NCBI GenBank assembly: GCA_042562855.1
Contig: JBHPNE010000005.1
Coordinates: forward strand, 154 to 64,153
Source of the DNA: Elusimicrobiota bacterium
GTDB taxonomy: Bacteria; Elusimicrobiota; Endomicrobiia; Endomicrobiales; JAPLKN01
DNA: 64,000 nt
Direction: 5' to 3'
In this document: positions 13,788-30,139 of the stretch, in pieces
How the letters are laid out: every line of letters begins with the position of its first letter
How positions within the stretch are numbered: the first letter of the stretch is position 1
Translations under genes and position numbers: made by a program
Notes under the pieces: model-generated
The model's database searches: none
What the model saw: only the letters and a program-made list of their open reading frames with translations
Told to the model about the DNA's origin: nothing

Positions 13788-14045
13788 GGAGAGGTGTCTG
13801 TGTGGGCCGCAGTGCGAGGAATAACGAGCACAAGTATTGCGGCGGGCGCGAGATGGTGAGCGCCCCGGAAACCAACTCCTGGGCAGCTCGTAATGAACGA
13901 AGTGAATGGAGAGGTGTCCGAGTGGGCCGCAGTGCGAGGAATAACGAGCACAAGTATTGCGGCGGGCGCGAGATGGTGAGCGCCCCGGAAACCAACTCCT
14001 GGGCAGCTCGTAATGAACGAAGTGAATGGAGAGGTGTCCGAGTGG
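13788..14045 (+). repeat. 120-bp tandem repeat: 18-nt tRNA-Ser 5' end plus a 102-nt hairpin-rich module, two copies abutting the intact tRNA
   Basis: Units start at 13788 and 13908 and the tRNA at 14028. 13802-13925 is identical to 13922-14045. The first tRNA fragment has 2 mismatches (ggagaggtgtcTgTgtgg). Confidence 0.95.
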
Positions 14046-14114
14046 TTTAAGGAGCACGCCTGGAAAGTGTGTGTACCAGCAATGGTACCGAGGGTTCGAA
14101 TCCCTCCCTCTCCG
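14028..14114 (+). tRNA. tRNA-Ser(GGA)
   Basis: Acceptor ggagagg/cctctcc; anticodon arm cacgc-ctGGAaa-gtgtg; long variable arm gtacca-gcaa-tggtac; T arm gaggg-ttcgaat-ccctc; CCA not encoded. Confidence 0.97.
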
Positions 14115-14117
14115 TTT

Positions 14118-14282
14118 GAGTTTGGCTGAAAGGTTCTTAATTCTATTCCGAAATCAATATTTTGGCTGCAACTTCGGAATCCTCATTTCATGTAGCGCTG
14201 AGGCTACACATCAATTCTGATTCCTTCGTTTCGCTCAAAACTTTGTTTTCTCATAACGAATTAGAACCATTCAGGCAAACTC
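14118..14282. repeat. 165-bp imperfect palindrome (MITE/REP-like long hairpin)
   Basis: Arm 14118-14143 gagtttggctgaaaggttcttaattc versus reverse complement of 14258-14282 gagtttgcctgaatggttctaattc; nested inner stems ggaatc/gattcc and tgtagc/gctaca. Confidence 0.8.
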
Positions 14283-14310
14283 TATAAAAGTGTTTATTGG
14301 GAGGAGATTA

Positions 14311-14946
14311 ATGAAAGATATTTTAAAGGAGACAGAAAAAATATTTAGGTATATTTTATCAGGAGTGTTTGGTTTGGGATTACTATATTTAATGATACTT
14401 GATCCTAAAATAAAACTTATTCCTGATGGTATAATTTTGCCTGAATCAGTCAATAGTATTAGTTTTATGCTAAGGATTGATGTTATGTTGGTATTGGCTA
14501 TTGTAATAGGAATGACGCTGTATTTGATTCAAAGATATGTAATTATTAGTTTGATTGATCTTATCTTATTTATATGTGGGCTGAATTGTTTTGCTGAAAA
14601 GAAAGTCAAATATTCTGATGCCCTTTCAGAATACCTTAAAAAAAGATTTGATCCAAAAAAAGCAAACATAGAGCTTTCTGGTCATCTTTTGTCTAGACAT
14701 GCGCATATTCATGCATTGATGTTGATTTCCTTAATAACATTATTGGGCAATATATTTATACTAAATAATTGGATTATAGGAATTGCTCTTACAATAATGT
14801 TTGTGATTATCTTTGCTCATATTATCAACTTAGAAAAAATAGAACGTAAAATATTTTATGGAAAAGCATTAGAAAATGAGAAGTATAGATGGGTAGTTAT
14901 TGGTCTTCCTTCGTTATTGATAATACTAGTACATTGGTTTTTTTAA
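14311..14946 (+). CDS. hypothetical multi-pass membrane protein
   Basis: GGAGGAG RBS before ATG 14311; several hydrophobic segments; very AT-rich. Confidence 0.7.
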   Translation: MKDILKETEKIFRYILSGVFGLGLLYLMILDPKIKLIPDGIILPESVNSISFMLRIDVMLVLAIVIGMTLYLIQRYVIISLIDLILFICGLNCFAEKKVKYSDALSEYLKKRFDPKKANIELSGHLLSRHAHIHALMLISLITLLGNIFILNNWIIGIALTIMFVIIFAHIINLEKIERKIFYGKALENEKYRWVVIGLPSLLIILVHWFF

Positions 14947-14957
14947 TACTATTACTC

Positions 14958-15131
14958 ATGAAAAAATATTTGCTATGGGCTTCGCTCGTAATAATCCTTA
15001 TTTTGGACTGGCTTGCTCTTGATGATATTACAACAAGGAATGAGCCTAACTATGCGGGTGAGTGGGGTATATTAGCAGCAAGTATAGTTATAATTCCTTT
15101 CTTAGTATTCCTAATTTCAAAAAAGAAATAG
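14958..15131 (+). CDS. small two-TM membrane protein (57 aa)
   Basis: MKKYLLWASLVIILILDWLALDDITTRNEPNYAGEWGILAASIVIIPFLVFLISKKK; two TM helices with basic ends. Confidence 0.6.
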   Translation: MKKYLLWASLVIILILDWLALDDITTRNEPNYAGEWGILAASIVIIPFLVFLISKKK

Positions 15132-15143
15132 TATTGTTTTATA

Positions 15144-15860
15144 TTACAACTGAAAATCGTCTATAAGTTTTAGGAGTGTCTTAGAGGATTTTTGAACGAT
15201 TTGTCTCATTTTGGTTGAATTTTCTTTGCTAAATGCCTCATAGTATGGTTTCGTTCCTATAATATCAGTCACGAAAAGAGCAGCTGCAGCTTTCTTTCCT
15301 ATATTCTGAGCGGCAGCTAGAACAGCAGAAGTTTCCATATCAATAACATCTATGTCGTTAATGTCTAAACTCTTTAAATACTTTTCTTCTAGTTTCAGAG
15401 AACTTACGGTAAGGCAATTACCTTTATGCATACCATCTGAATGACTTAGTAGTTTTTCAGTTAAGGCATTATCAGAAGCAAAAGTATCGTTAATCTCCTT
15501 TCCTGAAAGCGTATTGGTAAAACTATCTTGTGAGTAAGCTTTCTTTATTAAGAAAATACCACCTATTTTTGTTTGCCCTTTGTCTACTGCTCCGCAGGAA
15601 CCGAAGAATATTATTTTTTCGCATGGAGTATCTTTTAAGTAAAGAACAGCATCTCCTGTAAAAGCGCTTCCCATACGGGTAATGATGAGAGTAATATTTT
15701 CATCATTGCCGGCAGAGTAGAGCAAACCCCTGCTGATGTTTTTGATATTCAGAATAGAAATTATGTCTTTAGAGTAAAATGGAATTACTATGCAGGTTTT
15801 CTTTAATTGTGATGGGAATATCCCAAATAGTGTTTTGAAAATCTCATTATTATTTTGCAT
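15144..15860 (-). CDS. nucleoside phosphorylase/hydrolase (PNP/UDP family)
   Basis: FFGSCGA, VIDMETSA and FVTD motifs; likely start MQNNNE at 15860 overlaps the upstream stop. Confidence 0.8.
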   Translation of the reverse strand: MQNNNEIFKTLFGIFPSQLKKTCIVIPFYSKDIISILNIKNISRGLLYSAGNDENITLIITRMGSAFTGDAVLYLKDTPCEKIIFFGSCGAVDKGQTKIGGIFLIKKAYSQDSFTNTLSGKEINDTFASDNALTEKLLSHSDGMHKGNCLTVSSLKLEEKYLKSLDINDIDVIDMETSAVLAAAQNIGKKAAAALFVTDIIGTKPYYEAFSKENSTKMRQIVQKSSKTLLKLIDDFQL

Positions 15861-16692
15861 ATTTGTTCTCAAAGTATGATTTTCTTCCGTGAATATAAAT
15901 GTCAGATCTGATTTTACAAAATTTTGATTCAATTTGTATATCTTCTTTTATTTGTCTCCAGGTCTCATTATAAAATCCATTGTTATTCAGCAGTTTGTCA
16001 TATTTTTCCTTTAGTTCTGGGTATACAGTGGTGATTTTTGCTACAACATTTTCGATATTTCCAAGATTAAAATTTAATCCTTCAAAATCCAATTCTTCAA
16101 TATTTGTAATGAGATTAAATGCTCCTTTTATATCGGATACAAAAGGTAAAACAGGGGAAAAATATGGAGTAACGTTTATTCCATTTTCTTTTAATTTTTT
16201 CACTGTTTCTATTCGTGATTGGAATGATGGGCTTTTAGGTTCAAGTAAATCCTTTAATTTTTGATCATAAGAGTTTATAGTGAAGTAAATCGATTCGCAC
16301 ATTCCTTGTTTAAGGAGGTCGATGTAGTCTAAAACCAATGGTGAGCGGGTAAGTATAGAAAACTTTATCTTATACAAGTTTAATACTTCCAGGCATTTTT
16401 TAGTAATTTTGTATTTTGCTTCCAATGGCTGAAAGCATTCTGTAATAGAGCCAAGAAGTACATTTTTAGGTTTATTATAAAGAACCTCTTTTTCTAAAAG
16501 CAGTGGTGCATTAATTCGTGCATCAACATAGCTGCCCCAAGGCCGGCCGTCTTTTTGCGCAACCTTGTTAAATTGGGCATAGCAGTATAGACATGAGTAT
16601 TCGCATCCCTTAAAGGGGTTTATTACGTATTCGCCAAGATCAATTGATGTTGGATTAAGTATTTGTCTCAAGAAAACTTCTTTAACTTCCAT
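15850..16692 (-). CDS. radical SAM protein, spore-photoproduct-lyase-like family
   Basis: INPFKGCEYSCLYCYA (CxxxCxxC), ILTRSPL, LEPKSPS...RI. Confidence 0.85.
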   Translation of the reverse strand: MEVKEVFLRQILNPTSIDLGEYVINPFKGCEYSCLYCYAQFNKVAQKDGRPWGSYVDARINAPLLLEKEVLYNKPKNVLLGSITECFQPLEAKYKITKKCLEVLNLYKIKFSILTRSPLVLDYIDLLKQGMCESIYFTINSYDQKLKDLLEPKSPSFQSRIETVKKLKENGINVTPYFSPVLPFVSDIKGAFNLITNIEELDFEGLNFNLGNIENVVAKITTVYPELKEKYDKLLNNNGFYNETWRQIKEDIQIESKFCKIRSDIYIHGRKSYFENKYAK

Positions 16693-17984
16693 TAATGTTC
16701 CACCAGGTTGTTTATAAATGATTTTGAATATGTATATCCGTTCGCCTTAATTGTGTTAATTAGCTCATCAACCCTTGTCCCGGATACACTATTTAACTTA
16801 TAGTCAAATGATCTGTCAAGCTCAGTTCCTTCATAGTAAACATAAGGATTAATCTGCTCTATCTTTTTTATTAAACTCCTGTTGTTAACAAGAAAGCTGA
16901 GTGTTTCCTTGAAATCCTGCTCGGATTCGTTTGGAAAGCCTACTATCATACTTATTCCGAATTGAAGATCATGGCTTTTAAGTTTTTTAAAAAACTCTAA
17001 TGCCTCATTTGATGTAAAGCCTTTATTCATTATTTTTAGAGTACTATCCGATCCGGATTCTAGACCAACGAATAAATTGTAGCAGCCGCTTTGTTTCATT
17101 TTCTCAAATAATTTAATGGGCATGTCAGAGCGGACTGCAATTTGCGCCTCCCAGGGGATGGACACGAAGTTTTTGATGATTTCATCGAGCAATGTTTCAA
17201 AAGCAGCTAAATCCGCATTTACCATTGAGTCATTGAAAACAAAGTTTTTTATACCTTCAGCTTTTAAATCTCTTATTTGCAAGATCATCTTTTCGATAGA
17301 CATTGTTTTAAAGTTTTTGTAAAGGAGTTTTTCAGAGCAAAATGTACAATGTCTTATACACCCCCGTGAAAACATAAGCTGAATTGTATTTTTTCTTGGG
17401 TACTTGGATAGGTCAAGGCCTGAGTAGTCCGGAATTGGTAAGTCGCTTGAGTTTTTTATTTCATTGAATAAAACAAGTTTGGTATCATTGCTTTTGTCTT
17501 GGATAAAATTGAGTAACGGTATTTCGCCTTCGCCGACGACAATTTGGTCGACAAAGCTTGAGTACTTATCAATAATTGAGTCTCCATGCTTAAAATACTG
17601 CCATGTTATTTCTGGTCCGCCTATGATAATTTTAATCTTGCTGTTTTTACCTTTGAGAAGTTTTGAGAATTTTAGAACACTATTAAAATTGCTTTTATAA
17701 CAAGACATGGCAATGGTATCGTAATTGGCAAGCTTATCGGTTATTTTTTCGAATTCCTTTGTTTTGGAAATTATGCCGAAAGCTTCGTCCTCTATCTTTT
17801 TATTGCAGCTGATGAGCCATTCTTTCTTGAGATCGGGACCAGCCAAATTATAAAATAAATTATTCAAATCGAATGTATCAATGCTTATATTTCGGCTTTT
17901 TAAATATCCTTTAAGCGATGCTAAGCTAATTGGCGCAAGAAGCGGCCAAAAAACAGGTAGTAATACAAGGGCATTTTTATTCAT
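16692..17984 (-). CDS. cobalamin-binding radical SAM protein
   Basis: N-terminal B12-binding-like domain (PISLASLKGYL...IIIGGP...VVGEGE), SRGCIRHCTFC, GLESGS, IVGFPNE. Confidence 0.87.
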   Translation of the reverse strand: MNKNALVLLPVFWPLLAPISLASLKGYLKSRNISIDTFDLNNLFYNLAGPDLKKEWLISCNKKIEDEAFGIISKTKEFEKITDKLANYDTIAMSCYKSNFNSVLKFSKLLKGKNSKIKIIIGGPEITWQYFKHGDSIIDKYSSFVDQIVVGEGEIPLLNFIQDKSNDTKLVLFNEIKNSSDLPIPDYSGLDLSKYPRKNTIQLMFSRGCIRHCTFCSEKLLYKNFKTMSIEKMILQIRDLKAEGIKNFVFNDSMVNADLAAFETLLDEIIKNFVSIPWEAQIAVRSDMPIKLFEKMKQSGCYNLFVGLESGSDSTLKIMNKGFTSNEALEFFKKLKSHDLQFGISMIVGFPNESEQDFKETLSFLVNNRSLIKKIEQINPYVYYEGTELDRSFDYKLNSVSGTRVDELINTIKANGYTYSKSFINNLVEH

Positions 17985-18062
17985 TTGTTTATTTTACTAT
18001 TTTTGGTACAATTATAACAGTAATCAGAATTACAGACTAAAAACATTAAACAGAAAACTAAA

Positions 18063-19130
18063 ATGAAATTAAAAGAACTAGGATTTGACAGCTGGTTTGA
18101 GAAAAAATTAGGCGATATTCCGATTAAGGACTGTAGTATTGCAAGAGTTTCGGCAGTTGAAAAGGATTCGTGCAGTGTTTTGGGTGAATTTGGAGAGGTA
18201 ATTGCAAGTATCTTGGGAAAACTTCGTTATACTGCTGAGTCAAAAGAAGATTTTCCGGCAGTCGGTGATTGGGTGTTTGTACAGTATGTAGATAATAATA
18301 CTCAAGGTGTAATTCATGGAATATTGCCTAGAAGATCGGTTTTAAAAAGGAAAAAACCGGGACAAAAATCTGAGTACCAGCTGATTTCCTCCAACATCGA
18401 TACAGCATTTATTATGCAGTCTTTGACAGAAGATTTCAATATAAGAAGACTTGAAAGATATCTTATTGCAGTAACTGAAGGCGGGATCGAGCCTGTAATA
18501 TTATTAAGCAAATGTGACCTTATATCAAATAAAGAAATAGACAATAAAATTCAAAGTATCAGTGATTATAATAAGTACAAGATCATTTCGTTTAGCAATA
18601 AGACGGGAGATGGGATAGGTAACATTGCAGACGTTATTAAACCCGAAAAGACATACTGTATCGTAGGGTCCTCCGGCGTTGGTAAAACCACTTTGTTAAA
18701 CAAGCTAATAGGCGAAGATAGATTTAAGACCGGCGAAATAAGGGAAAGTGATGGAAAGGGAAGGCATATAACAAGCAGAAAAGAGTTTGTAGTTCTTCAA
18801 AACGGAGGATTGATAATAGATACCCCGGGTCTTCGGGAATTTGGAAATATAGAAGCAGATGCAGGCCTGATAAATACTTTTCCCGATATAATTGAACATG
18901 CATCGGATTGTAAGTATGTTGATTGCACTCATTCAAACGAACCCGGCTGTGCGGTAGTTAAAGCCATAGCTGAGGGAAAAATATCTGAAAGCAGGTTCAA
19001 GAGCTATTTAAAATTGAAAAAGGAATCGGATTATAATAAACTCACTTATCTCGAAAAAAGGAGAAAAGATAAAAAGTTCGGAAAGTTTGTTAAAAAAGCG
19101 TTGAAACATCATTGGAAGAGAAGAGGCTAA
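18063..19130 (+). CDS. rsgA: ribosome small subunit-dependent GTPase A
   Basis: PAVGDWV OB domain, SKCDL, GSSGVGKT, GRHIT, DTPG and CKYVDCTHSNEPGC Zn site. Confidence 0.93.
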   Translation: MKLKELGFDSWFEKKLGDIPIKDCSIARVSAVEKDSCSVLGEFGEVIASILGKLRYTAESKEDFPAVGDWVFVQYVDNNTQGVIHGILPRRSVLKRKKPGQKSEYQLISSNIDTAFIMQSLTEDFNIRRLERYLIAVTEGGIEPVILLSKCDLISNKEIDNKIQSISDYNKYKIISFSNKTGDGIGNIADVIKPEKTYCIVGSSGVGKTTLLNKLIGEDRFKTGEIRESDGKGRHITSRKEFVVLQNGGLIIDTPGLREFGNIEADAGLINTFPDIIEHASDCKYVDCTHSNEPGCAVVKAIAEGKISESRFKSYLKLKKESDYNKLTYLEKRRKDKKFGKFVKKALKHHWKRRG

Positions 19131-19152
19131 GAATAGGAAAATGCGATATTAG

Positions 19153-19181
19153 TTGATATTTTTTTACAAAATTGGTATCTT
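19153..19181 (+). promoter_or_regulatory. sigma70-type promoter of the histone gene
   Basis: TTGATA (19153-19158), 17-bp spacer, TGg-TATCTT (19176-19181). Confidence 0.5.
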
Positions 19182-19215
19182 CTTGGCGTAAAACTAAAAT
19201 TGGAGGGTTAACAAC

Positions 19216-19395
19216 ATGGCAGAGATTCTTGCAGTAGTAAGCAAAGTTAAGAAGATGGTAAAAGATGCAGGTTTAAGAACAGGAGCTGATTATATAGCTT
19301 CTCTTTCAATTAAAATTGAGGAAATTGTAAAAGCCTCTATCGAAAAAGCAAAAGCAGACGGAACAAAGAAGACGTTAGGTTCAGAAGATATCTAA
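19216..19395 (+). CDS. bacterial histone-fold protein (59 aa; absent from the ORF track)
   Basis: GGAGG RBS at 19202-19206; MAEILAVVSKVKKMVKDAGLRTGADYIASLSIKIEEIVKASIEKAKADGTKKTLGSEDI matches the bacterial histone pattern (xxSKVKxxxK...AKAxGRKTVxxxD) of Bdellovibrio Bd0055 as I recall it. Confidence 0.85.
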   Translation: MAEILAVVSKVKKMVKDAGLRTGADYIASLSIKIEEIVKASIEKAKADGTKKTLGSEDI

Positions 19396-19402
19396 ATATC
19401 TG

Positions 19403-19774
19403 GTGTCAAAAGAAAAAATTACTTTTGAAGAGTTTGAAACAATTATTGAGAATTCTGTTAACGCTCTTCCTAAAAAGTTCAAAGATATACTGGATAAAAA
19501 CCATATCAAGCTTATTCCCCGCGATGACTTGCCGGAGTCGATTAGAAGTAAATACCCCGGGAAAGTAGTATTCGGCATATTTATCGGTGTGCCTTATGGC
19601 CGATTTTTCCATGTGGCCACTGAGCCGACCCGGATAGAGCTTTATAAAAAAAGCTTTGAAAAGGTTTTTGACGATCCTGATGAGATAAGGGAACAAATAA
19701 TCAAGACCGTTATTCATGAAATAGGGCACTACTTCGGGTTTTCGGAAGAAGCGATACGAAAGTTAGGTTATTGA
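19403..19774 (+). CDS. minimal zincin-like metallopeptidase (Zincin_1/DUF1025 type)
   Basis: GIFIGVP, PTRIELY and TVIHEIGHYFG motifs. Confidence 0.85.
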   Translation: MSKEKITFEEFETIIENSVNALPKKFKDILDKNHIKLIPRDDLPESIRSKYPGKVVFGIFIGVPYGRFFHVATEPTRIELYKKSFEKVFDDPDEIREQIIKTVIHEIGHYFGFSEEAIRKLGY

Positions 19775-19864
19775 AAAGATTTTAAAAATTGCTTTAAAAA
19801 TAATTCTCAAATTTGTATAATCCGACCACAAATCTTTAGTAAAAATACAAAAGGGATTCACACC

Positions 19865-21382
19865 ATGAAGATCTATCTTGCCGGATATAATGTCGATACC
19901 GTTGTGCTCAGCGAGCTAAAAGAAAAGTATGGTGATCGTACAGATATTACTCCTGAAGTAATATCTGCTGCTTATGCAAGAATAAGCCGCGATCCAAGAT
20001 CGATTAATGAAATAAGAAAAGACGCCCGCCTGGAAGTTGAACGTACAAGAAAATCGAATGAAACTATAATATTTAAAATGGGACATCATTCGGTTGCTGA
20101 ACATGCGGTATTCAATCTTGATATTGTTGGCCTTTCAAGACTTGCGATGGAAGAGCTCGAAAAATTCCGACTTTCTTCATTTACAGAAAAATCTCAAAGA
20201 TACATTACTTTAGATAAAGATTTTGTTATTCCTGAAGAAATTAAAAATACTCCTTTAGAAAAAGAATTCGTCGATATAGTACATCTGCAAAACAATGCCT
20301 ACCATGAGTATTACGGAATCTTAAAAAGTTATGTATTCAAAAAATATTCCGAACTCGCTTCTGACCCTAAAAAGCATAATTTACTTGAAGGCTGGGCAAA
20401 AGAGGATGCCAGGTATATAACAGCGCTTGCAACCGAATCTCAGGTTGGACTTACCGTAAATGCCAGAAATCTTGAGCTTATGCTAAGGCGGTTTGCGTCA
20501 AGCTCTTTGTCGGAAATTCGGGAGCTTGGAAGCCAGATTTACAGCCAGATTTCTGAGGTCGCTCCTTCAGTGGTTCTTTTCCATCAGGCAAACGACAAAG
20601 ACGTTAAAACTTACCCGGAATTGAAAAAACTGCTGTCTGGAAAAACTAAACAAAAAAGCCAAACAAAATTTTCTGAAGTAAAACTTGTTGATTACACCAA
20701 AATGGGGGATGACGTTATTGCAGCATCTCTCATGCATACCTCGTCAAATATGCCTTTCGATGCATGTTTATCCAGCTTAAAAAAAATGTCTAATAAAGCA
20801 AAAGCAGATATATTTAAAACATCTTTCTCAAATATGCAATTTTATGATTCTGCATTAAGAGAATTTGAATATGCAAATCTCACCTATAATGTAGTATTAT
20901 CATCCGCATGTTTCGGGCAGCTGAAGAGACATAGAATGTCTACAATCACAAGCCAACCTTATGATATTTCGCTTGGTATTACTATCCCTGAGTCTATTAA
21001 AGAGATCGGCAAAGAAAAACACTTTAAAGAAATTATTCTTAAAACAGAAAAAATATATGCAAAAATGTTAAAAGATGTGCCTTTGATTGCGCCATATATC
21101 CTTACTAATGCGCACAGAAAACGGGTTCTTATACGCCTGAATGCCCGGGAGATGTGCCATATATCCCGTCTTAGAGAAGATGCGCATGCTCAATGGGATA
21201 TAAGAAATATTTCTTCAAAAATGAGTGTGCTGGCAAAAAAAGCAATGCCTCTAACATTTATGATGTTGTGCGGAAAAGATAAATACAACGAAACTTATCA
21301 AAAAGTCTTCAGTAAATCGCCCAAAATTATTGAGGCAGTTTTACCGGGGGCAAGAAAAATAAAGGAAGGTGTGAAGTCATGA
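19865..21382 (+). CDS. thyX: FAD-dependent thymidylate synthase, tandem double-domain form
   Basis: AYARISR, MGHHSVAEH, SFTEKSQRY, EDARY and NARNL in domain 1; LKRHRMS, NARE and HAQWDIR in domain 2. Confidence 0.85.
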   Translation: MKIYLAGYNVDTVVLSELKEKYGDRTDITPEVISAAYARISRDPRSINEIRKDARLEVERTRKSNETIIFKMGHHSVAEHAVFNLDIVGLSRLAMEELEKFRLSSFTEKSQRYITLDKDFVIPEEIKNTPLEKEFVDIVHLQNNAYHEYYGILKSYVFKKYSELASDPKKHNLLEGWAKEDARYITALATESQVGLTVNARNLELMLRRFASSSLSEIRELGSQIYSQISEVAPSVVLFHQANDKDVKTYPELKKLLSGKTKQKSQTKFSEVKLVDYTKMGDDVIAASLMHTSSNMPFDACLSSLKKMSNKAKADIFKTSFSNMQFYDSALREFEYANLTYNVVLSSACFGQLKRHRMSTITSQPYDISLGITIPESIKEIGKEKHFKEIILKTEKIYAKMLKDVPLIAPYILTNAHRKRVLIRLNAREMCHISRLREDAHAQWDIRNISSKMSVLAKKAMPLTFMMLCGKDKYNETYQKVFSKSPKIIEAVLPGARKIKEGVKS

Positions 21383-21945
21383 AGATTCTTAAATGGATTT
21401 TAACCGCTTTGGCAGTTGCTGCTACAGGTCTGATGGTATTTCTCTGGTATATGGACATGTTTTCAAAGCCCGTAATAAGCGAAAGAGTTATCGGGCCTTA
21501 TACAATTGCATATGAGGATTACATGGGGCCGTACAAAAATACAGGAAAAGTATTTGAAACGGTATACAACAATTTAATGGCAGATGGAATTGAAACAACA
21601 AAGGGATTAGGGATTTATTATGATGACCCGCAGAAAGTTCCGGCAGAAAAATTAAGAAGCCGCTGCGGTTCAGTTGTTGAGGAAAATGATATTCCCAAGC
21701 TTATGTTGATGGAGAAAAAATATAATATAGCTACTATAAATCAGGCGCAAAGCGTGGTTATTGAATTTCCTATAAAAAATAACCTTTCATATATGATGGG
21801 GCCTATGAAAAACTACCCCGTACTTACGAAATATGCAAAAGCAAGAGAATATCAACTAAATTCCCTGGCTTATGAGCTTTATGATATACCAAATAAAAAG
21901 ATTTATTTTATAATGGAAATAAAAAAAGAGAACCTAGAAGATTAG
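21379..21945 (+). CDS. membrane-anchored GyrI-like small-molecule-binding protein
   Basis: N-terminal TM helix; GPY...GIYYDDPQKVPAEKLRS GyrI-like motif. Confidence 0.75.
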   Translation: MKILKWILTALAVAATGLMVFLWYMDMFSKPVISERVIGPYTIAYEDYMGPYKNTGKVFETVYNNLMADGIETTKGLGIYYDDPQKVPAEKLRSRCGSVVEENDIPKLMLMEKKYNIATINQAQSVVIEFPIKNNLSYMMGPMKNYPVLTKYAKAREYQLNSLAYELYDIPNKKIYFIMEIKKENLED

Positions 21946-21951
21946 ATATTA

Positions 21952-22812
21952 ATGAAAACAACAGTCTTTGAAGTGTCTCAAAGAATCGCTGGTACAAATC
22001 GTGAAAATGTAAGACGTGTATTAAGCAGCTTTAAAAAAGCCGGAGTTAAAGAAAAAGACATAGCTTCCATTGAAATTGATGACGCAAAGATATTCGCATA
22101 TTATACGGAAAGTTTAAAAACCGCAAAATCTATAAAACAAAAGTTTCTTAAAAATAAGCTACCCGAAGCAACTCTTGCAATTAAAAAGCTAAATAAATCA
22201 GACTGGCTCACAAGGTGGGAAAAAGAATCCAGACCTTTTTATATTAAGAAACATTTCAGAATAGTTCCCCAAAATATTCGATCAAAATTTAAAGCTACAA
22301 AAAAAGACATATATATAGATGCAACCAGGGCTTTCGGCCTGGGCGAGCATCCGACTACTATGTTTATGGCAGAATTTGTTATTGAAAAGGCAAAAAAATG
22401 CAGAAGCCTTCTTGATGTTGGTACGGGCAGCGGGATTCTTTCGATAGTTGCAAATAAATGCGGGATAAAGGATGTCTGGGCGACAGATATTTCGCCGGAT
22501 GCTTTAGAAACAGCCGATAGCAATTTTATAAGAAATAAGACCCAGGCCGATTTATTCTATGGCGGAGATTTTAGGAAAGCCGAATTAAGAAGAAAATTCG
22601 ATTTTATATGTGCGAATCTTTTTTCTAATGTTTTAATCGGGATGAAAAAGAAATTTCTAAATCATTTATCAGATAATGGATATTTGGCAGTATCAGGAAT
22701 ATGGAAAGATGAGATTGAGAGGTTTAAAGAAAGGTTTAACTCAAAAAGACTAAAAATAGAAAAAGTTGCTGCCAAAAAGGGATGGTACGCAATACTTTAC
22801 AAGCTGAAATAG
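21952..22812 (+). CDS. prmA: ribosomal protein L11 methyltransferase
   Basis: DWLTRW, AFGLGEHPTT, LDVGTGSGILSI, ANL and SGI motifs. Confidence 0.85.
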   Translation: MKTTVFEVSQRIAGTNRENVRRVLSSFKKAGVKEKDIASIEIDDAKIFAYYTESLKTAKSIKQKFLKNKLPEATLAIKKLNKSDWLTRWEKESRPFYIKKHFRIVPQNIRSKFKATKKDIYIDATRAFGLGEHPTTMFMAEFVIEKAKKCRSLLDVGTGSGILSIVANKCGIKDVWATDISPDALETADSNFIRNKTQADLFYGGDFRKAELRRKFDFICANLFSNVLIGMKKKFLNHLSDNGYLAVSGIWKDEIERFKERFNSKRLKIEKVAAKKGWYAILYKLK

Positions 22813-22822
22813 GAGGAATTGT

Positions 22823-22990
22823 ATGGAACTTCATGAATTAATTAAGCCGTTGGGAATATTGACATACGTTTTTGCTGCAATTACTTTTTTAAGCGGACTA
22901 TTTAGAATGAAAATTAAAAAGCATATGACCTTAGCCATAATTACAATACTGTTTGCAAGTGCGCATGCTTTTCTTGTTATCACTCATTGA
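22823..22990 (+). CDS. small two-TM membrane protein (55 aa; absent from the ORF track)
   Basis: AGGAGG RBS at 22811-22816; MELHELIKPLGILTYVFAAITFLSGLFRMKIKKHMTLAIITILFASAHAFLVITH. Confidence 0.7.
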   Translation: MELHELIKPLGILTYVFAAITFLSGLFRMKIKKHMTLAIITILFASAHAFLVITH

Positions 22991-23078
22991 TAAGAGTATT
23001 TTTATTTTGATACAATGAATACGGACGGATTTTAATTTTTCCAAGAAATATCACATAAACAAGGAGGAGGTGACATTC

Positions 23079-23426
23079 ATGAAGAGAGCATTAACTGTAT
23101 TGTTTGCTATCTGTTTTATTTTTAGCGCAAACATTCTTTACGCTGGTAAGGGTCAATGTCCTGCTGGCTCAGGAGCTGGACAAGGGAAGGGTATTGGAAA
23201 AGCCAGTGCGCCTGGACAAAAAATGAAAAAGGCTAAAATGCAGCAAGGAAAAATGAACAAAAAGCAAGTGAAGCAGAAGCAAATGAACAAAAAAATGACA
23301 AAAAAACAAACTAAGCTTGAGAAAAAGCAAGCTAAAAAAGCAGGAAAGACTGCTAAAGTGAAAAAGAGCAATAAAAAGCAGAAAACGAAAAAAGCTGCAA
23401 AAATGAAGACTCAAGATCAAAAGTAG
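23079..23426 (+). CDS. secreted Lys-rich low-complexity protein
   Basis: GGAGGT RBS 7 nt before ATG 23079; signal peptide, then about 93 aa with 33 Lys. Confidence 0.75.
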   Translation: MKRALTVLFAICFIFSANILYAGKGQCPAGSGAGQGKGIGKASAPGQKMKKAKMQQGKMNKKQVKQKQMNKKMTKKQTKLEKKQAKKAGKTAKVKKSNKKQKTKKAAKMKTQDQK

Positions 23427-23435
23427 CCGAATGTG

Positions 23436-23483
23436 ATAAACCTCTTATGAAGCAATTTAGCTGAATAGGAGGTTTATTATTTT
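23436..23483 (+). terminator. probable intrinsic terminator
   Basis: ataaacctcttat / ataggaggtttat stem followed by an A/T-rich tract. Confidence 0.5.
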
Positions 23484-23517
23484 AAAGAATCAAATAGTTT
23501 TGTATAATATTAAAAGT

Positions 23518-23718
23518 GGGTCGTTAGTTTCCGCCAGAGGCGGGCCCGCCCTGGGTGGGCAGTTGGGTCTTTAAGATTTTTTACTAAGCAGTAATTACTG
23601 TGCCAATGGGGCCATAGTACAACGGGCGAGTTTTTGGACCAGCCCGAATAGGGTTGGACGTACACATCGTTCGCAACGATGGGATATTGATTAAAGATGG
23701 GCCGGTAGTTCAGTTGGG
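23518..23718 (+). repeat. array of three tRNA-Ala 5' fragments upstream of the intact gene
   Basis: Fragment A 23518-23567 (with 30-nt insert); B 23608-23681 (divergent 5' half through the anticodon arm, 30-nt insert); C 23699-23718 (identical to tRNA nt 1-20). Confidence 0.85.
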
Positions 23719-23798
23719 TAATGTCACTGGGCCAACTGGATTTATAAAAAAACTAAAGCTTTCAAATATAAATGAAAAGTTGATATAGAATATAATAT

Positions 23799-23871
23799 GG
23801 GCCGGTAGTTCAGTTGGGAGAACGCTTCGTTCGCAACGAAGAGGTCGCCGGTTCGACTCCGGTCCGGTCCA
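23799..23871 (+). tRNA. tRNA-Ala(CGC)
   Basis: Acceptor gggccgg/ccggtcc with G3:U70; D stem gttc/gaac; anticodon arm cttcg-ttCGCaa-cgaag; T loop ttcgact; CCA not encoded. Confidence 0.96.
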
Positions 23872-30033: not shown

Positions 30034-30063
30034 AAAGCTGCAATTTAGAATATGTAGTGCAAT

Positions 30064-30135
30064 TCCGGCGTAGCTCAATGGTAGAGCATTCGGCTGTTAA
30101 CCGAAGGGTTGTTGGTTCGAGTCCAACCGCCGGAG
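30064..30135 (+). tRNA. tRNA-Asn(GTT)
   Basis: Acceptor tccggcg/cgccgga (U1-A72); anticodon arm ttcgg-ctGTTaa-ccgaa; T arm gttgg-ttcgagt-ccaac; CCA not encoded. Confidence 0.97.
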
Positions 30136-30139
30136 TTTA

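Follow-up and report, generated by a model that had tools for sequence, protein, structure and literature searches.

Stacked tRNA 5' fragments upstream of two bacterial tRNA genes: probable remnants of small cassettes that invade tRNA genes

Two tRNA genes, tRNA-Ser(GGA) and tRNA-Ala(CGC), lie on the plus strand of the window studied here, a stretch of 64,000 nt of contig C45 from the Elusimicrobiota genome G000 (1.12 Mb, 54 contigs, 60.5% complete), and each of them is preceded by stacked partial copies of its own 5' end. Arrays of this kind had been described upstream of both genes in an initial annotation of the DNA and are confirmed here, with two copies at the serine gene and three at the alanine gene. 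They probably represent stacked remnants, left when small selfish cassettes invaded tRNA genes, a reading that draws on the polarity and architecture of the copies, on a GIY-YIG nuclease gene that recurs in the slot between fragment and tRNA, on the presence or absence of units at an orthologous site, on one replacement of a tRNA, and on covariation within a hairpin module.

Arrays of tRNA 5' ends in the window and across the genome

The tRNA genes of the window were called with ARAGORN and Rfam. The serine array, up to and including the intact gene, consists of the following features:

13788-13805, plus strand: distal pseudo-5' fragment, tRNA-Ser(GGA) nt 1-18 with 2 mismatches
13806-13865, plus strand: double-hairpin module, copy 1 (hairpin H1 at 13806-13843, H2 at 13844-13865)
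13866-13907, plus strand: tail of Ser unit 1, its end abutting the next fragment
13908-13925, plus strand: proximal pseudo-5' fragment, tRNA-Ser(GGA) nt 1-18, exact
13926-13985, plus strand: double-hairpin module, copy 2
13986-14027, plus strand: tail of Ser unit 2, directly abutting tRNA position +1
14028-14114, plus strand: intact tRNA-Ser(GGA), called by ARAGORN and Rfam

The two fragments are part of a 120-nt tandem repeat (2.2 copies as assembled, 98% matches), in which tRNA nt 1-18 are followed by a 60-nt GC-rich double hairpin and then by a 42-nt tail. In module copy 1, H1 has GAATAA as its loop and contains a tandem G.A pair, and the first 14 nt of the tail of unit 1 could pair with fragment nt 1-13.

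The alanine array is arranged differently:

23481-23508, plus strand: promoter-like site, TTTAAA, 16 nt, TATAAT (consensus match only)
23516-23569, plus strand: Ala pseudo-part A (oldest), diverged nt 1-12, two GC hairpins, nt 13-20
23608-23681, plus strand: Ala pseudo-part B, diverged 5' end, insert, D-loop, D-stem, and whole anticodon arm
23699-23798, plus strand: Ala unit C (youngest), exact nt 1-20/21 at 23699-23718, AT-rich tail reaching the tRNA
23799-23871, plus strand: intact tRNA-Ala(CGC), called by ARAGORN and Rfam, with dnaX 97 nt downstream

The starts of successive copies are spaced 92, 91, and 100 nt apart. In part A, the copy at 23516-23529 is followed by hairpins at 23530-23544 and 23545-23559, after which the match resumes at 23560-23569; in part B, the diverged 5' copy covers 23608-23626, and 23653-23679 is 81% identical to tRNA positions 23813-23839; unit C contains an inverted copy of D-loop bases near 23732-23740. 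Since inserts and end points differ among the three, the Ala units are treated as separate events, and three such unlike units thus point to recurrent events, of which the oldest lies farthest from the gene. The promoter-like site ends 8 nt upstream of the oldest pseudo-part, where it would occupy the place of the original tRNA promoter.

The statement that distal copies are the more diverged is borne out at both loci (two mismatches against an exact copy at Ser, and likewise at Ala). The statement that in four of the five copies the match ends at the D-loop GG(G) holds for exact matching; units A and B of the Ala array resume after the insert, so that the apparent ending at the D-loop reflects exact matching.

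Self-copies were then counted for 27 tRNAs of G000, as exact matches of at least 13 nt to the tRNA's own end within 500 nt of the gene. The search of the 500 nt upstream of every tRNA, which the initial annotation had proposed, was positive for 7 of the 27 (exact matches of 13-23 nt), namely Gln-CTG, Ala-TGC, Glu-CTC, Pro-GGG, Ser-CGA, Ser-GGA, and Ala-CGC, and 3' copies were present downstream of two (Pro-GGG and Ser-CGA). On the wrong sides, i.e., 5' copies downstream and 3' copies upstream, 0/27 was obtained in both cases; the polarity is thus strict, as previously claimed, and the intact tRNA always stands at the proximal end. tRNA-Asn(GTT), at 30063-30136, had been listed as a gene lacking an array, and no copy of its own 5' end was found within 500 nt upstream. 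When tRNAs were paired with the upstream regions of other tRNAs (n=672), six long matches were obtained, all of them between neighbouring tRNA genes, and the rest were at most 9 nt long; chance as the source of the own-5' copies is excluded.

Similar copies are seen in relatives, in agreement with the earlier view that the two arrays form part of a system and are not a coincidence. Among all 46 tRNAs of the complete genome G023, one 5' copy upstream and one 3' copy downstream were found, and among 33 of the 42 tRNAs of G001, a member of the same family, two and six, respectively; wrong-side copies were absent from both of these sets. G000 is therefore unusually rich in upstream copies. The units at Gln(CTG) recur at 105 and 104 nt. 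The occurrence of the same architecture in many independent genomes argues against an assembly artefact. Among public sequencing runs, none of RNA was found to contain the stretch, and no run contained more than 0.06 of the words sampled from it.

Other inserts accompany the 3' pseudo-parts of G000. A second conserved GC-rich element lies in the T-loop of a 3' pseudo-tRNA part at about 27540-27643 of contig C34, 3' of tRNA-Ser(CGA); it is also found at loci L008, L021, and L026, and at the latter two together with the double-hairpin module. Additionally, two tandem units of about 120 nt lie 3' of tRNA-Pro(GGG) on contig C19 (locus L002), each ending in a tRNA-Pro 3' pseudo-part in which a small hairpin takes the place of the T-loop.

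GIY-YIG genes in the slot and the comparison of occupied and empty sites

At tRNA-Glu(CTC) on contig C12 and tRNA-Pro(GGG) on contig C19, the approximately 300 nt between fragment and tRNA are taken up by an open reading frame (ORF) of 93-96 codons that matches the Pfam GIY-YIG family (PF01541, above the cut-off; E-values 9e-16 and 6e-17). Both ORFs extend into the tRNA, where a TAG in the D-loop serves as the stop codon. The encoded proteins, of about 90 aa, comprise the catalytic domain only; the nearest solved structures are 1ZG2 and 1YWL, both of uncharacterised UPF0213 proteins, and among NCBIfam models the group I intron endonuclease family matches below threshold only. The genome has five small GIY-YIG proteins, and in the four that were aligned the Tyr, Tyr-x-Gly, Arg, His, and Glu columns are invariant; we take these residues to be catalytic.

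A homologue search with the Pro-linked protein against one genome per species yielded 212 relatives, of which the best 80 loci were examined; these belong to Patescibacteria, metagenome-assembled genomes (MAGs) labelled Gammaproteobacteria, Bacteroidota, Bdellovibrionales, Planctomycetales, and one Elusimicrobiota. A same-strand tRNA lies between -80 and +160 nt from the stop codon at 35 of these 80 loci, for which the chance expectation is, by a rough estimate, below 1, and at 25 of the 35 tRNA-linked loci a copy of the tRNA 5' part also lies in the 260 nt preceding the ORF. Within the order, the closest homologues lie directly before a tRNA at 5 of 29 loci (Pro-GGG, Ser-GCT, Ser-GGA, Pro-TGG, and Ser-CGA), and the rest comprise four loci with a tRNA upstream and 20 with no tRNA.

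The upstream copies at the GIY-YIG loci are not clean truncations. One example runs from nt 1 to 19, through a GC hairpin, and on from nt 18 to 29; others read nt 1-17, hairpin, nt 17-34, or nt 1-22, a perfect 20-bp palindrome, and nt 23-35, and at 6 of the 12 loci displayed the pseudo-part resumes past the hairpin to about nt 29-35. Pseudo-part and ORF thus meet somewhere between the D-stem and the anticodon loop, in many cases close to nt 35, and the hairpin forms an insertion of its own within the D-arm. Overall, dead copies run to about nt 21-43 and have GC-rich hairpin modules inserted in the D-arm. The claim that breakpoints fall at the D-loop hence does not stand, as it is the hairpin modules that are inserted there, and exact-match "D-loop breakpoints" mislead annotation because the dead copies continue past these inserts.

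Two relatives are particularly informative. In G007, a nearly complete pseudo-tRNA-Ser(GGA) with hairpins in its T-loop stands upstream of the ORF, and it differs from the intact tRNA-Ser(GGA) that follows the ORF; the cassette therefore brought a replacement tRNA. In G001, pseudo-parts of the 5' side upstream and of the 3' side downstream flank an ORF and a tRNA, and a common hairpin replaces the anticodon arm. This layout would be expected if the insertion of the ORF together with a tRNA had split a resident tRNA, and such splitting would thus account for the downstream 3' copies of G000.

The site of the Ala array allows orthologous loci to be compared. A dnaX match was obtained in 61 genomes, 30 dnaX loci were examined, and tRNA-Ala(CGC) lies just upstream in 13 of them. 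The site is empty in seven (G001, G008, G012, G024, G039, G023, and G002) and occupied in five (G000, with three units, and G006, G007, G035, and G032), whereas G016 was scored as neither; the site is thus polymorphic for presence and absence. The empty site of G001 comes from the same family as the window and has an identical tRNA-to-dnaX spacing. G006 and G007 contain different hairpins at one point, after nt 12, as does Ala unit A of G000, and in G035 the double-hairpin module follows nt 20 and is itself followed by nt 22-33. The duplicated segment in G006 and G035 also takes in about 20-30 nt of leader, which fits copying from an allelic cassette-bearing locus and not a short target-site duplication.

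Two further small GIY-YIG genes, about 90% alike by eye, are located at C30:4991-5251 and C4:25027-25266. An 11-13-nt inverted repeat surrounds each of them, and they stand between housekeeping-type ORFs (by eye) and not beside a tRNA.

The double-hairpin module

The 120-nt Ser unit matches 25 of 61 related genomes, mostly via its positions 17-83, with up to 14 copies per genome among the matches listed. An alignment of 38 distinct copies backs the two hairpins of the module, with changes on both sides in 13 of its 19 pairs. The number of cells in which both sides change is 86, compared with 26.6 in shuffles, of which 0/500 reach 86; in slid controls the number does not exceed 11. Of the 38 copies, 36 retain the GAATAA loop and 33 the tandem G.A/A.G. 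The module corresponds to no family in Rfam: when the window stretch and 12 module loci were searched with E-values up to 1, only tRNAs and chance-level matches were returned.

Among the best-scoring loci of other genomes, with one or two taken from each, 21 of 28 have the module no more than about 150 nt from a tRNA; the sample is biased, since the query contained the Ser flanks. Upstream of a tRNA, the module follows a duplicated 5' end of the same tRNA (Ser, Gln, Glu, Ala, and Thr); downstream, it precedes a copy of the tRNA 3' part, once in reverse orientation (L035).

The distribution of the module was compared with that of two enzymes in the 61 genomes, which are not independent. For the GIY-YIG gene, 18 relatives have both, 7 the module only, 13 the nuclease only, and 23 neither; for Y1_Tnp, the corresponding numbers are 16, 9, 8, and 28. 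Neither gene tracks the module strictly. Two Y1_Tnp (IS200/RAYT-like) genes of about 226 aa are present in G000, at C34:61507-61836 and C23:31107-31436; inverted repeats of about 14 nt flank the C23 copy, and the C34 copy shows only part of this motif. Short GC-rich palindromic repeats associated with RAYT (Y1) transposases are known as REP and BIME elements, and the module resembles them as a GC-rich palindrome that is dispersed in intergenic DNA, sometimes in tandem, in a genome with Y1_Tnp genes. Unlike these elements, it consists of two hairpins with conserved loops, and it is present in nine genomes with no Y1_Tnp match, including G038 with at least 12 copies.

A rival reading holds that the units are functional structured leader RNAs, co-transcribed with the tRNA and kept by selection, rather than scars; fragment, module, and tail would then form a three-way junction with an acceptor-like closing helix that RNase P releases. 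The strong covariation and the conserved loop and tandem G.A described above favour such an RNA, as does the fold of the Ser unit, in which fragment nt 1-13 are paired to the tail in a three-way junction (z-score -3.3), and a TATAAT stands upstream of the distal fragment in the relatives' loci L011 and L037 (by eye). However, orthologous loci differ in whether they contain units, the module is found in both orientations and on the downstream side of tRNAs as well (as at L035), and in high-copy genomes most of its copies lie away from tRNAs. Furthermore, pairing of the 38 copies with their own flanks barely exceeds pairing with swapped flanks (mean -16.1 vs. -14.2 kcal/mol), and G-T vs. A-C counts within the module, 10 vs. 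6, give no clear strand signal. A leader RNA is thus considered unlikely as the explanation of the arrays.

Origin of the arrays

The cassette reading, which we consider the probable one, can be set out as a series of proposed steps. Each event would leave a non-functional 5' part of the tRNA upstream, interrupted by a GC-rich hairpin module; next would come a short tail or, in complete versions, the gene for the GIY-YIG nuclease of about 90 aa, and last an intact tRNA. Since later events would strike this intact copy, older scars are pushed outward. Homing is the process that we infer: the nuclease would break the tRNA gene, and the break would be repaired by copying the cassette-bearing allele, whose flanking tRNA pieces could act as portable homology arms. 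The hairpins may disable or shield the dead copy, and recombination between short direct repeats would expand or contract the units, as in the two 98%-identical Ser units. The initial annotation had proposed a trans-acting enzyme that adds short cassettes; the slot protein is a small GIY-YIG nuclease, which suggests homing-type cassettes together with short-repeat recombination rather than an adaptive array. A nuclease gene lies within the element at Glu(CTC) and Pro(GGG) and not at the window arrays, which may be ORF-less derivatives or non-autonomous relatives tied to the nuclease by architecture only.

Several observations weigh against this reading. A search for nuclease remnants, using a hidden Markov model (HMM) of 74 GIY-YIG proteins on all six reading frames of the 600 nt to either side of each of the 27 tRNAs, matched only the C12 and C19 ORFs and found no remnants in ORF-less units, both window arrays included; the window arrays are therefore linked to the nuclease by architecture and not directly. 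At 45 of the best 80 loci there is no same-strand tRNA at -80 to +160 nt from the stop codon. No module was found beside the GIY-YIG gene in the 29 loci from relatives, and the seven genomes with the module only gave no match to the nuclease. Modules also stand away from tRNAs, in 8 of 12 cases in G044 and in all six examined in G038, and these copies lie inside other palindromic carriers; the module is therefore a dispersed structured repeat, for which dead tRNA parts are one site among several. The predicted nuclease, with about 90 aa, comprises the catalytic domain only, with no evident DNA-binding domain, and the cleavage and specificity of the protein are presumed. Moreover, if its target is inside the tRNA, the cassette's own intact tRNA must somehow escape cutting.

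Precedents that support this mechanism come from phages and fungal mitochondria. According to the available parts of the reports, SegB of phages T4 and T6 is a free-standing GIY-YIG homing endonuclease in a tRNA gene cluster (PMC2330249), which cuts inside tRNA genes, and recombination-dependent tandem repeats of tRNA and truncated nuclease gene follow (PMC13096335). A GIY-YIG nuclease gene beside tRNA genes is common to both systems; SegB is a phage protein, in contrast to the chromosomal catalytic domain of about 90 aa described here, which is known from sequence alone, and the partial tRNA copies here carry hairpin modules. SegB also has a DNA-binding part. In fungal mitochondria, as far as the available text of the source goes, free GIY genes are duplicated together with the N-terminus of atp9, and free-standing GIY-YIG/LAGLIDADG genes share with the present cassettes a duplicated piece of the host gene, i.e., a pseudogene beside the working copy; their targets are protein-coding and organellar, and the same text describes neither hairpin modules nor tRNA targets (PMC7487136).

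An alternative that dispenses with repeated invasion holds that one founding event was followed by growth only through replication slippage or unequal crossing-over between short repeats. The two Ser units, 98% identical and exactly 120 nt apart, and the Gln(CTG) units at 105 and 104 nt would agree with this, and the amplification driven by SegB indicates, in the portion of the report available, that such repeats can expand (PMC13096335). However, the three Ala units differ in inserts and end points, 7 of 27 tRNAs are affected, and the founding duplication still needs a cause; growth by slippage only is accordingly quite improbable.

Alternatively, the fragments might be att-site scars of elements with a tyrosine or serine integrase that were later deleted to about 100 nt. 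Duplicated tRNA pieces around insertions are the classic mark of integrases, and in the available part of one report partial tRNA copies beside the intact gene are the footprint of mobile elements such as integrase islands and proviruses (PMC9897764). In both situations a partial tRNA copy adjoins the intact gene, and 3' copies downstream occur in G000, too. The usual att duplication comprises the 3' part of the tRNA and an element of several kilobases with an integrase, whereas the arrays here consist of 5' parts upstream, in units of 90-350 nt with no integrase. The single Phage_integrase gene found in the 60.5%-complete G000 is on another contig, C51, and the region between the two window tRNAs contains no integrase, transposase, or reverse transcriptase (RT), in agreement with the initial annotation, which saw none of these in the window. 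Hairpins interrupt the pseudo-parts, and leader sequence can form part of them; the ORF in the slot, when present, encodes a GIY-YIG nuclease, as at 35 of the best 80 loci. Scars of integrases are thus a very unlikely source.

The original idea of a dedicated trans-acting enzyme that adds short cassettes and leaves a chronological record, akin to a CRISPR or integron array, is highly improbable, since the strict polarity with the newest unit beside the intact tRNA, which speaks for it, is outweighed by arrays of only one to three units and by spacers that are not diverse captured sequences but a few recurring families of hairpin modules (98% identical between the Ser units), with no match for either array in phage or plasmid collections. 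Among other candidate enzymes, neither RVT_1 nor Cas1 was found in the 60.5%-complete genome, which yielded one distant tyrosine recombinase. What survives of the record is that the Ala stack is roughly ordered, with the most decayed unit farthest away; this order is a by-product and not the work of a recorder. A CRISPR array was rejected on the identity of the Ser spacers, on their missing phage or plasmid matches, and on the missing Cas1, and an integron because the units contain no genes and no recombinase lies between the window tRNAs, the sole Phage_integrase match being that on C51.

A wider version of the cassette reading is offered tentatively: the arrays might represent a phylum-spanning, undescribed class of selfish cassettes that overwrite tRNA genes through nuclease-triggered recombination, with the hairpin modules as cis-acting parts and the stacked dead tRNA ends as a record of successive invasions. 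The tRNA pieces would then be homology arms, which would make a target of every genome that has a similar tRNA, and the modules would either shield the dead copy from re-cutting or form an RNA processed from the leader. A literature search, outside which lay subscription journals and supplements, turned up no account of small bacterial GIY-YIG cassettes by which tRNA 5' parts are duplicated. That homing-endonuclease genes duplicate part of their target is already known; the load of 7 of 27 tRNAs in one genome, the orthologous comparison of empty and occupied sites, and the covarying double-hairpin module are new. If the cassette reading is correct, tiny nuclease cassettes keep overwriting the tRNA genes of many uncultured bacteria, which would explain puzzling tRNA fragments and pseudo-tRNAs in MAGs, open a route by which tRNA alleles are replaced horizontally, give the widespread, uncharacterised UPF0213 GIY-YIG proteins of about 90 aa a biological role, and add a new conserved structured module that may act as an RNA or as a DNA hairpin.

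The surroundings of the two arrays present some further features. Directly 3' of tRNA-Ser(GGA), a segment of about 168 nt (14118-14285) ends in 26-nt inverted repeats (one gap, 2 mismatches) and folds as one long hairpin of -55.6 kcal/mol; it is single-copy in the 60.5%-complete genome. A 118-aa ORF at 23070-23426, lysine/glutamine-rich, of low complexity, and unmatched in Pfam, stops about 90 nt short of the oldest Ala unit. tRNA-Ser(GGA) and tRNA-Ala(CGC) are 9.7 kb apart here vs. 0.5-1 kb in the relatives G007, G008, and G016, and the intervening region (14115-23798) contains housekeeping-type genes for RsgA, ThyX, PrmA, and radical SAM enzymes.

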